A stretch of DNA of 64,000 nucleotides, taken from Larus michahellis. Its lineage: Eukaryota. The position numbers were made by a program. The stretch is from assembly GCF_964199755.1 (NCBI RefSeq), contig NC_133912.1:254570-318569 (forward strand). Reading direction: 5' to 3'. Shown here one piece after another: positions 24,001 through 27,000 of this stretch (position 1 is its first letter; each line of letters starts with the position of its first letter).

Positions 24001-27000
24001 ATCTTTTCTAACCTAAACGATCCTGTGCCTCACATCCAATTTACCCAGGTGACTGAGGGACCCAGCCACCCACGCTCCACCTCCCACATGAACCCCTCAG
24101 TTTCTGAGGGACCCAGGTGTCCAGCTGCCCCCCACCCTCCAAAACCTCTCGGCTTGTGTCTGGGGGACCTAGGAGTCCAGGGAACCCATCCCTGCAAGCC
24201 CCTCCGCCCACGTCTGGAGGACCCAGGCCTCCAAGGGTCCCAGTTGCCTGGGGGTGCCCTGCATCCCCCTGTCCCAGGGACACAGATGTTCAGGCAGGAA
24301 CAGGAGAAGGTTGGTGCCACCAGTGACAGGCAGCCTTGGGCCTGGGAGGGGGCGGGAGGTGACAGCAGTGTCCCTAGGGTGCTGGGCAGGTTAGCCTGCA
24401 GAGAGGAGGGCGGCATCTGTTACCTGGGAACACCCTGAACACTGGGACATCCCCCACCTTGGGGGTCGTGGGGTGGGGATCTGTCACCCGGAGGACACGC
24501 CAGGGGCCCCTGCTACCCCCTACACTTATCGGACCCTGCCCAGGCTCCAGGGTGGCACTGGTGGCAGTGTAACCTGCGGGGTGGGGTGCTGTGTCAGAGA
24601 GGAGCTCTAAAATACCCCCTGGGTCCCCATCTCATCCCCCACTGTCCCCCCACATTCTCCCCTGATCCTGGGTCCCACCGTCCTCATCCCATATCCCCAT
24701 GTCACGCCCCCTCCGTCCTTCACCGGTTTCCATGTCCCCCCAGCCAATCTTCATGTCACTTCCCTTGTGCCCAGGGCACCCCACATCCCCTCACCCCTCC
24801 CCACCATCACCCCCAGTGTCCCCCAGCAGTCTTCCCTAACCCCCCCCCAGCATTCCCAGTGCCTCATCTCCCCCAGACCCCAAATCACGCCCCCGTGCCC
24901 ACATCTCCTGCTCTGCCCCACATCACCCCGGGGCCACTCACATCCCCATACCACCACCTTCACCTTGTCCCCTCTCCTGGTCCCCACATCCCCACCACGG
25001 CTCTCCACGTCCCCTCCCTTGTCCCAGGGGCTCCCCACCTCCCCTTACCCATCGCCTAATGTCCCCCACCTGCTCCCCCTGGTCCCATCCCCTTAATCAC
25101 CCCCACTGTGTCCCTCGCCCCAAGCCCCCCAGAAGGCGCGGCAGCGGGGGGCGCACCGAGGTCCTGGCACAACAGACACATGAAGCCGCGGCCAGGGGCG
25201 ATGGCGGTGGCCCCGGGTGCTGCGAGCTGTGCCACCGAGGCGCTGGGCAGGACCTGCGGGCGAGAGGGGTGCCGGGGTTAGAGATCACCCGGGGGGGCCG
25301 GGAACACACCCCCTGGGTGTCCCGCACCCCCGCTTGGATTCATCCGGGGGCACATGTGTCCCCTTTTTCCCAAAGCCTGTCCCCCCAGAGCTCACCCCCC
25401 TCATCGTCCCATTCCCTCAGACCCCCCTCCCCGGGCCTGTCCCCCGCGGGGGCGGGAGGGAAGCGGCGCACGCGTACTGCGGGCGGGCAAGATGGCGGCG
25501 CCCGTTGCCGTGCAATGGGGCCGGGCCCGGCGCCGGGTCGGTCGGTCCGGGCCTGCGCCCGGCGAGTCCCTGCTGGAGCCGGGACTGGGACCGGCACCGG
25601 GGTCGGAGCCAGGGCCGGAGCCAGGGCCGGAGCCGGGGCCGGGGCCGGGAGCGGCGCTGACGCCTCTGTCCCCGCCCGCCCCCGCTGCACCCTGTGTCCG
25701 CACCCGCCTCGCCCCGCCCCCCTGGGAAAATCCCGGCGCCGGGCAGGGGCGAACCGTGTCCCCGGGAGGGGTGAATCCAGCCCGGGCAGGGGCAAATACA
25801 GCCCTGGGGGGTGGGGGAGGACAGGTTGTGCCCTGGGTGGGGTAGATCCTCCCGGGGAGGGTAGATCTTGCCCGGGGGCGCCGTGTGGGGTGTGAATCCG
25901 GGCCTGTGGGGCGGGCCCCGATGGGCCGGGCGGGGCTGGGCGAAGGCTTTTCCGTGCTCTCGTCGGCCGCGGGGAGGTGTCCTGCCCCACAGGGAAGTGT
26001 CCTGCGCCACAGCGAGGTGTCCTGCCCCGCGGCGAGGTGATCTCCTGTCCCACGGTGAGGTCTCCTTCCCCCCCCCCCCCCCGCCTCCATTTCCCCCCAG
26101 CCCCATGGCGAGCTCGCCTGCCCCACAGCAAGCTCCCGACCCCACGGCAGGGACCCTGGGCATCCCACCCTGCGGGGGGGCTCCTCTGCCCCATGGCAAA
26201 GTCTCACCCCCACGGCAAGCTTTTCCCACCCCGTGCCAAAGCCTCCTGCCCCCCCGTGAGCCCTATGGTGAGGTCTCCTGCCCCACCCAAGCGTCCCCAT
26301 CTGCCCTGCAGCAGCCTGATCTGCCCCACGGCAAGCTTCTCCATCCTGTGGCGAGGTCTCACACCCCACCATGAGCCCCACAGCGAGGTCTTCTGCCCCA
26401 CAGCGACCTGGTCTGCCCCACAGAAAGCTTTTCCACCCTGTGGCAAGGTCTCCCACCCCACCATAAGCCCCATGGTGATGTCTTCTGTCCTTCCCCCTCC
26501 CCTGCCTGATGAGCTCATCCACCCCACGGCAACTTCCATCAGCCCCGTGGCACGCTTTTCCACCCTGTGGCAAAGTCTGTGAGCCACAACAAGCTGTTCT
26601 GCCCCACAGCAAGCTCATCTACACCCCGGGAAGGTCTCCTGCCCCACTGTGAAGTCTGCTGCCCCATGGAGGACCCTGTGATCCGCATACCCCCCTACCA
26701 CTATGTCCATGTGCTGGACCTCAACAGCAATGTCACCCGTGTGGAGGTTGGGCCCCACACCTACATCAGGCAGGATCACGAGAGGTGGGTGCTATGGGGC
26801 AGGGGGGCGCCTATGAGTTGTGGGGGTCCGGTTCCCACCTCTGGCAGGACCACAAAGAGTGGATGCTATGGGCCAGGTGGGGATCTGTGGGAGGATGGGT
26901 CCTACCCCTTTGTCTGGTAGGACTACAAGACATGGGTGCTACGGGGCAGGGGGTGGATTTCCATGGCTATGGGGCAGTCTAGACTTATAGGTGTGTGGGG

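Follow-up and report, generated by a model that had tools for sequence, protein, structure and literature searches.

A 20-bp tandem array at the 5' end of the MVP gene of gulls and other birds

The analyzed window is a stretch of 64,000 nucleotides from the gull Larus michahellis (contig NC_133912.1, positions 254,570 to 318,569 of the forward strand), and coordinates given without a locus name refer to it. Its plus strand carries the gene MVP, with the start codon at 26666-26668, a first coding exon that ends at 26784 (AG|GTGGGT) and further exons up to approximately position 38400. The start codon was located by tblastn with bird MVP proteins, and the N-terminus encoded from 26666 is that of most bird MVP models. 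The protein and the RefSeq model from Chroicocephalus ridibundus share 99% identity, and the DNA of the two gulls is 99.39% identical over 16 kb. The peptide 'SSAAG' encoded upstream agrees with the Larus michahellis model and not with that of Chroicocephalus. Directly upstream lies a degenerate tandem array whose last unit, ctgccccATGGaggacc, contains the start codon, as had been proposed in a sequence-only reading of the window, which described a minisatellite running straight into MVP. Probably, as we argue here, an old array supplies the donor, the acceptor and the start codon of the MVP 5' end in the birds examined.

The array and the MVP 5' end in the gull

By wrap-around alignment to the consensus CTGCCCCACAGCGAGGTCTC, the array extends from 25962 to 26675 on the plus strand and comprises approximately 36 to 37 units with a mean identity to the consensus of 65%; tandem-consensus alignment delimits it to -713 to +13 relative to the MVP ATG. 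Identity at a lag of 20 nt amounts to 0.496, whereas the highest value among 200 shuffles that preserve dinucleotides is 0.361. Lags 40 and 60 are elevated as harmonics and a higher-order peak is found at lag 92, while the autocorrelation of the array region shows no elevation at lag 21. The minisatellite of about 35 units anticipated from the sequence is therefore real, but its period is 20 bp and not 20 to 21 bp. Tandem Repeats Finder (TRF) detects the best-preserved stretches only, namely 25972-26071 (4.8 copies of 20 bp) and 26300-26487 (two copies of 92 bp). The latter is a higher-order duplication on the plus strand, each copy of about 4.6 units, with 83% identity between the copies; the block is single in the storm-petrel (88-nt alignment gap) and also occurs in a gull paralog (L001, see below). 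Eight unit matches with at most three mismatches were found in the 64-kb window, where 0.03 are expected, and every one of them lies within the array. The interval 25960-26670 contains CCCCATGG four times, GTGAGG twice, CCCCACAG six times and CCCCACGG four times. Units thus include ACG|GTGAGG or ATG|GTGAGG as donor-like and YYYCCCCACAG| as acceptor-like sequences, and their C4 core is the best-conserved portion.

Three other identities of the array were considered and rejected. A protein-coding repeat on either strand was dismissed: long open reading frames exist (e.g., 405 aa on the minus strand), yet the period is not a multiple of three, indels between gull and petrel measure 25, 25, 88 and 11 nt, and there is a 4-nt difference between the two gulls. 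A structured or otherwise known noncoding RNA was rejected since Rfam yields nothing within the array, its sole match being a sub-threshold hit to mir-3689 at 25272-25332 (E = 0.43). A dispersed repeat family was rejected because unit matches are restricted to the array within the 64-kb window. No description of a bird MVP 5' array was found in our literature search.

According to the gull gene models, the array is divided among two exons and an intron. Exon 1 (25470-26054, plus strand) is predicted to be non-coding and is located in a CpG island; its 5' end is approximate, its last 93 nt or so are array units 1-5, and the models P0241, P0374 and P0371 take in 25921-26054 as exon. The observed/expected ratio of CpG is 0.76 in exon 1 and the CpG island (GC content 0.77) versus 0.33 in the array intron. 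Intron 1 (26055-26609, plus strand, 555 nt) consists wholly of array units 5-34. Exon 2 (26610-26784, plus strand) combines an ATG-free 56-nt leader from units 34-36 with the first 119 nt of coding sequence, whose start codon lies in unit 37, as given by the gull models and tblastn. The gene assignment, the non-coding exon 1 in a CpG island and the mostly intronic position of the array, all suggested beforehand from the sequence, agree with these models. The neighborhood of the transcription start site (TSS) is probably marked by a promoter-proximal motif, AAGATGGCGGC at 25489-25499 (plus strand), which was read from the sequence and which we take to be YY1-like. The chicken complementary DNA (cDNA) contigs L014 and L015 start at or just before the orthologous gtaATGGCGGAGCC, and from these 5' ends at the conserved (A)ATGGCGG motif we infer a gull TSS near 25470-25500. 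Further downstream, a 12-bp (CCGGGGCCGGAG)n repeat occupies 25597-25654, inside the CpG island and putative exon 1 and upstream of the 20-bp array.

The gull RefSeq MVP proteins P0241, P0374, P0371 and P0372 (917-919 aa) carry an N-terminal extension that begins at an upstream ATG in exon 1, at position 25921. It maps to 25921-26028, continues at 26030-26053 after a skip of 1 nt, takes the G at 26054 and then jumps to 26610. As the 1-nt skip amounts to a forced frameshift, it explains the flag 'LOW QUALITY PROTEIN' on gull models. The upstream ATG shares the MVP reading frame in Rissa but not in Larus or Chroicocephalus, and it reads GTG in petrel and ducks; consequently, the annotated extension is not conserved coding sequence. 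The gull extensions are likely annotation artefacts that arise from stop-poor repeat sequence. Along this line, the array would account for spurious N-terminal extensions and quality flags in bird MVP models, with 26666 as the conserved start.

Splice junctions, decoy sites and upstream ATGs

A single junction of the GT..AG type, 26054|26610, was decoded from the RefSeq proteins of Chroicocephalus (P0241), Larus (P0374) and Rissa (P0371 and P0372). Both boundaries of intron 1 fall within repeat units, 5 and 34, in the same repeat register, and the chicken cDNA junctions as well as the ostrich model concur. The 5' splice site ACG|GTGAGG (CCCACG|GTGAGG; 26052-26060, plus strand) belongs to unit 5 and reaches a score of 8.9 with a crude position weight matrix (PWM); the 3' splice site gttctgccccacag|C (CCCCACAG|; 26596-26610, plus strand) belongs to unit 34, lies 56 nt before the ATG and scores 6.7. 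Units had been said to mimic ATGs and splice signals. The motifs are present, but they are more than mimics, as the annotated donor and acceptor are themselves repeat units.

Exact matches to the chicken MVP protein comprise nine spliced-cDNA contigs of the Logan collection, which originate from several sequencing projects, and the genomic locus L010. Mapping of the cDNAs places the start of chicken exon 1 at approximately 5340-5359 of L010. The intron orthologous to gull intron 1 is spliced out in L011-L015, L017 and L018, in every case from the donor CCCCACG|GTGAGG. Six of the nine contigs use an acceptor 95 nt before the ATG, one (L017) uses TTCACAG|CACG at -50, which is the ortholog of the gull acceptor, and the remaining two retain intron 1. 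Some contigs have alternative upstream first exons, and the leader variants differ in the length of their upstream open reading frames (uORFs). In the hoatzin, the acceptor of isoform X1 precedes the orthologous site by about three units, X2 reads through and X3 has the canonical start. Choice of alternative units as acceptor and retention of the intron, both foreseen from the sequence, hence do occur in chicken cDNAs and hoatzin isoforms. Some models of Podargus and ostrich also read through array sequence.

A separate observation concerns positions 5906 and 5935 of chicken L010. All six contigs spliced at -95 have G at both, while the two intron-retaining contigs match the reference, with A at each position; the exon spliced at -95 begins with 5906, directly after the acceptor AG. 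This pattern, which rests on nine contigs (L011-L019), may reflect an allele-dependent acceptor strength.

Related sites are found in further birds. In the duck cDNA contig L021, an upstream exon outside the repeat, with the donor GTAATT, is spliced to GTCCCACAG|CGAGCTC at -59, which is likewise orthologous to the gull acceptor; a second duck contig, L022, was left out (36 unmapped 5' nt). The ostrich RefSeq model reads CCCCACG|GTGAGT...CCCCACAG|CAA, and the cuckoo and ptarmigan RefSeq models have the same splice motifs and positions as the gull. The donor GTGAG(G) is kept in Chroicocephalus, petrel, ducks, chicken, ptarmigan and ostrich, takes the form CCA|GTGAGT in emu and is deleted in the gull paralog L001; in the cuckoo, the donor region is hidden by an assembly gap. 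With the exception of emu, all birds examined have an acceptor ortholog 46-57 nt upstream of the ATG; in emu, a TAG-type site near -50 was recognized by eye. Template switching of reverse transcriptase in repeats can mimic splicing, according to Roy and Irimia (2008) as cited in PMC2812944. Such an artefact was judged unlikely in our case, since the junctions are of the GT..AG type and recur across contigs of several projects, and the duck junction involves a non-repeat exon.

Few units resemble strong splice sites. By the crude PWM, the interval 25480-26790 contains three strong donors, i.e., the annotated donor of intron 1, the real donor of intron 2 and one decoy (26268). This decoy, ATG|GTGAGG inside intron 1 (26265-26273, plus strand), scores 9.1 and is kept in Chroicocephalus, L001, petrel and probably cuckoo. 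Five decoy 3' splice sites in intron 1 (26087-26423, plus strand), with 26100, 26128, 26311, 26403 and 26423 as last intron bases, score 8.4, 5.8, 6.3, 8.3 and 5.5, respectively; on this crude scale they lie near or above the annotated acceptor, beyond which no strong acceptor follows before the ATG. The dozens of decoys expected beforehand thus shrink, by the same matrix, to one strong donor and about five acceptors. Petrel, cuckoo and the gull paralog have an extra acceptor-like site CCCCACAG| 16 nt before the ATG (26651-26657 of the window). The window and Chroicocephalus read CCCCACTG at this place, so a potential acceptor was lost in the functional gull copy.

The prediction that the array adds many upstream ATGs if kept in the transcript was borne out. 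Counted from a TSS at about 25470-25500, the gull leader contains ten upstream ATGs with intron 1 retained and three when spliced, none of them in the exon-2 part; splicing takes out seven of the ten. A uORF of 39 codons (MGRAGLGEGFSVLSSAAGRCPAPQGSVLRHSEVSCPAAR; 25921-26040, plus strand, stop codon TGA at 26038-26040) leads from exon 1 into array units 1-4, and its ATG is also present in chicken cDNA.

Spread, age and CpG decay of the array

A comparison with other bird MVP loci was to reveal, from the viewpoint of the sequence-only reading, whether the array is missing in related species; it is present in all bird loci examined. The array was identified upstream of MVP in ten of ten bird loci, covering palaeognaths, Galloanserae and Neoaves, with sizes between about 290 bp in ptarmigan and about 3.9 kb in emu. 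Measured by tandem-consensus alignment up to the start codon, it spans 726 bp in the window, 722 bp in Chroicocephalus, 683 bp in the gull MVP-like paralog, 653 bp in the storm-petrel, about 600 bp in ducks, 358 bp in chicken, 291 bp in ptarmigan, 1125 bp in ostrich and 3876 bp in emu. By the same alignment, the turtle MVP locus has no such array.

Gull and petrel arrays are colinear unit for unit (identity 0.79 versus 0.69 for a rotated control), and their indels come as unit-sized blocks. Intron 2 has an identity of 0.80 between these birds; the 56-nt leader in exon 2 is 91% identical, compared to 79-80% for introns 1 and 2. The intronic units therefore appear, from sequence comparison, to evolve near-neutrally. 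Between the window and Chroicocephalus, which are 0.6% apart, no change in unit number was found, and their introns 1 (555 and 551 nt) show homopolymer differences only. Chicken cDNAs compared to the chicken genome show no indels across exonic and retained array. Given the constant unit number in gulls, the lack of indels in chicken and the colinearity of gull and petrel, the array is old and slowly changing rather than hypervariable, although greatly expanded in palaeognaths. This does not agree with the earlier supposition of a likely length polymorphism.

Two sites of the unit were compared among its copies. At consensus positions 9-10, CA is found in 10, TG in 9 and CG in 8 rows, together 27 of 39 aligned unit rows (partial edge rows included); at positions 12-13, CA occurs 12, CG 9 and TG 7 times, together 28 of the 39. 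These dinucleotide states are CpG plus its two transition products. Units within the CpG island keep more CpGs, while intronic units are depleted of them. The emu consensus over approximately 170 units reads CTGCCCCACGGCGAGG. We propose CTGCCCCACGGCGAGGTCTC as the ancestral unit. It has two CpGs, and the ATG-, donor- and acceptor-like variants would be the products of ordinary CpG transitions in this one unit: ACGG to ATGG would yield an ATG, ACGG to ACAG the acceptor CCCCACAG| (YYYYCACAG|), and GCGAGG to GTGAGG a donor. Because CpG transitions convert the unit, the array would keep generating and losing start-like and splice-like motifs.

Altogether, we consider the following scheme probable. 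An old 20-bp array would occupy the whole MVP 5' end, from about 90 nt before the end of exon 1 through the entire intron 1 and the leader of 56 nt to the start codon. One unit near the CpG island would act as donor of intron 1 (26054|26055), and the CCCCACAG unit that is the last good one ahead of the ATG as its acceptor (26609|26610). Splicing would excise about 28 units in register together with seven of ten upstream ATGs, leaving the ATG-free leader of 56 nt before the start. The intronic units would evolve like a neutral intron, with shifts in unit number only over millions of years. Occasionally, other units would serve as acceptors or the intron would be retained, giving rise to minor 5'-leader isoforms. 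Gull transcripts probably follow the annotated structure, as the models predict.

Several points weigh against this scheme. The gull exon structure is taken from RefSeq models, which are computational, and two of these are flagged LOW QUALITY for the 1-nt frameshift forced into the spurious N-terminal extension. The Logan contigs demonstrate the existence of isoforms and say nothing on their abundance. The gull acceptor has its chicken ortholog at -50 and not at the major site, -95, which is canonical only with a G on the expressed allele in place of the reference A. The splice-site matrices are crude. Alignments of the duck and chicken arrays are no better than rotated controls, and unit-level orthology is demonstrable only within Neoaves. 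Finally, near-neutral intronic units may be compatible with a function of the array in bulk, e.g., in binding proteins that recognize C-rich sequence.

As to the origin of the intron, the turtle has an array-free intron whose acceptor lies 5 nt before the MVP ATG. Since an intron already exists at this position without the array, it looks as if the array replaced sequence and splice sites of an existing intron rather than making a new one; alternatively, de novo intronization may have followed the loss of the old intron. We also considered that the unit was born by duplication of the ancestral segment of 3' splice site and start codon (turtle ATGGCCGAGGAGTCC compared to unit ATGGCGAGGTCTCC). 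This was not supported, as the alignment is no better than shuffles: in local alignments of turtle and bird start regions to the tandem consensus, a fraction of 0.66-0.96 of the shuffles scored at or above the observed value. The turtle intron before the MVP ATG (L009, approximately 5300-5800) has its own, unrelated tandem repeat of about 90 bp, and repeat accumulation at this place is accordingly not limited to birds.

A second MVP-like copy is located on an unplaced scaffold of Chroicocephalus (L001, CAWUPF010000636.1). It is 87-95% identical to the window, and the array is present. Many changes from R to W, C, H or Q indicate CpG decay, the unit with the intron-1 donor is deleted and the equivalent of 33829-38870 is absent. 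This copy is probably a pseudogene.

Alternative readings and related systems

Since the start codon is part of the last array unit, it may be open to the dynamics of the array. The emu has ACG (L006, 6196-6198; ccccACGGAGGAC) in place of the MVP ATG that the remaining birds share, and this equals the CCCCACGG state of neighboring units. Its RefSeq model P0260 starts at an upstream ATG in the 3.9-kb array (2331-6190), the only one in frame, and crosses an array-internal intron (cgccca|gtgagtcc...ccccatag|tgacc). The ACG could be due to gene conversion from the array, to non-AUG initiation or to a base error. In kittiwake and ostrich, upstream ATGs of the array or of exon 1 are in frame with MVP. 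Extended to birds in general, gene conversion or unequal exchange in combination with CpG transitions would overwrite or relocate the MVP start codon and splice sites, such that N-terminus and 5' leader are remodelled lineage by lineage. We regard this extension as doubtful.

A second reading ascribes a function to the array in bulk. In one version, repeated CUGCCCC/UCUCC motifs in the pre-mRNA would putatively recruit poly(C)- or polypyrimidine-binding proteins (PCBP, hnRNP K, PTB) and thereby define a GC-rich intron; in the other, G-runs on the template strand would shape promoter-proximal chromatin or pausing. Persistence of the array at its exact location in all birds examined, from palaeognaths to Galloanserae and Neoaves, is in favor of such a role, as are the conservation of the C4 core and the direct vicinity of the CpG-island promoter. 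However, the array diverges as much as intron 2, varies more than tenfold in size among lineages, is entirely lacking in the turtle, and has no Rfam match. Taken together, the two versions are unlikely.

The idea that the array is a regulatory variable number tandem repeat (VNTR), polymorphic in length within populations and tuning MVP expression by its repeat number through splice-site competition or uORF load, has to face its slow evolution. In its favor are the range from 291 bp to 3876 bp among bird orders, the 92-bp block duplication in gulls and the chicken cDNAs, in which G..G in spliced and A..A in retained-intron contigs hint at allele-linked splicing. For human MVP, Holzmann et al. 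(2001; FEBS Lett 494:99), going by the title as cited in PMC3875758, report a splice variant of the 5' leader with an inhibitory uORF that lowers expression. Yet the unit number is equal in two gull genomes 0.6% apart, chicken cDNAs have no indels relative to the genome across exonic and retained array, and the colinear arrays of gull and petrel diverge as a neutral intron does; the chicken hint, moreover, concerns point alleles in nine contigs and not repeat number. A length-dependent regulation of this kind is quite improbable. There is no sign that the array acts as a variable regulatory switch.

It is highly improbable that the gull array is mostly retained as a long 5' untranslated region, or that transcription starts inside it, with the annotated intron as a minor form or prediction artefact: two of nine chicken contigs do keep the intron, the array is read through in hoatzin X2 and in several models of Podargus and ostrich, and the gull models are computational, but ten upstream ATGs would then precede the start, no other feature of the region is as well conserved across birds as donor and acceptor, splicing is seen in the duck contig and in most of the chicken contigs, and three gull annotations agree on the junction.

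The scheme that we prefer, in which units of an old array provide the splice sites and the start codon, has precedents. Zhuo, Madden, Elela and Chabot (PNAS 104:882, 2007) reportedly described introns and alternative splice sites derived from tandem arrays. Like those, bird MVP units hold both 5' and 3' splice-site-like sequences, the intron begins and ends in units so that splicing deletes a near-integral number of repeats, and alternative units are used while an unspliced form coexists (-95, -50 and retention in chicken, X1-X3 in hoatzin). Unlike them, the MVP array is ancient and degenerate, resides in the 5' untranslated region instead of coding sequence and includes the start codon; nor does the intron look like a recent gain, as the turtle shows that an intron at this position predates the array. 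Tandem repeats can create introns by activating cryptic splice sites, as far as this is summarized in PMC2812944. Bird MVP is an unusually old and well-conserved case of a tandem array that furnishes splice sites, whereas the phenomenon itself is already known.

In human MVP, exon 1 is said to be non-coding and to be followed by an intron that lies just upstream of the ATG, with a choice of splice sites that alters the uORF content of the leader (reportedly a finding of Holzmann et al. from 2001). We know of no 20-bp array in mammalian MVP. In the same gene, then, alternative 3' splice sites of intron 1 give different leader lengths (-95 and -50 in chicken, X1 and X3 in hoatzin); in birds, however, these sites come from repeat units, so that we see a functional parallel based on a different element. 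The gull has one annotated junction. With classical hypervariable minisatellites, the array shares GC-rich 20-bp units, a length of a few hundred bp, higher-order duplications and, in emu, an expansion to 3.9 kb. It differs from them in that unit number does not change between close relatives and unit order is kept across Neoaves, and it resembles a fossil array in most lineages.

The array by itself reveals no new vault biology and provides no evidence of regulatory polymorphism. Its value is that of a natural, datable example in which a tandem array takes over an intron, both splice sites and the start codon, and in which CpG decay of one repeat unit would yield ATGs, donors and acceptors. 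As every bird examined has the array and the turtle lacks it, a comparative series is available with sizes between 0.3 kb and 3.9 kb, which lends itself to studies of how splice sites are chosen among near-identical competitors and how 5'-leader isoforms turn over.

MVP intron 2 contains a minisatellite that is unrelated to the 20-bp array (GGGGCTCTATAGGGC..., periods of 19-78 bp). This family occurs in gull (window 27017-27362), ostrich (L005, 6894-7997) and emu (L006, 6716-7972), and represents a second old intronic array of the same gene. Upstream of MVP, the minus strand of the window carries an endogenous retrovirus at 13185-20677 with long open reading frames for gag (433 aa), pol (1037 aa) and env (844 aa), which was possibly active in recent times. 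Fragments of CR1 long interspersed nuclear elements are located at 1326-2969, 6493-7383 and 8346-9047.

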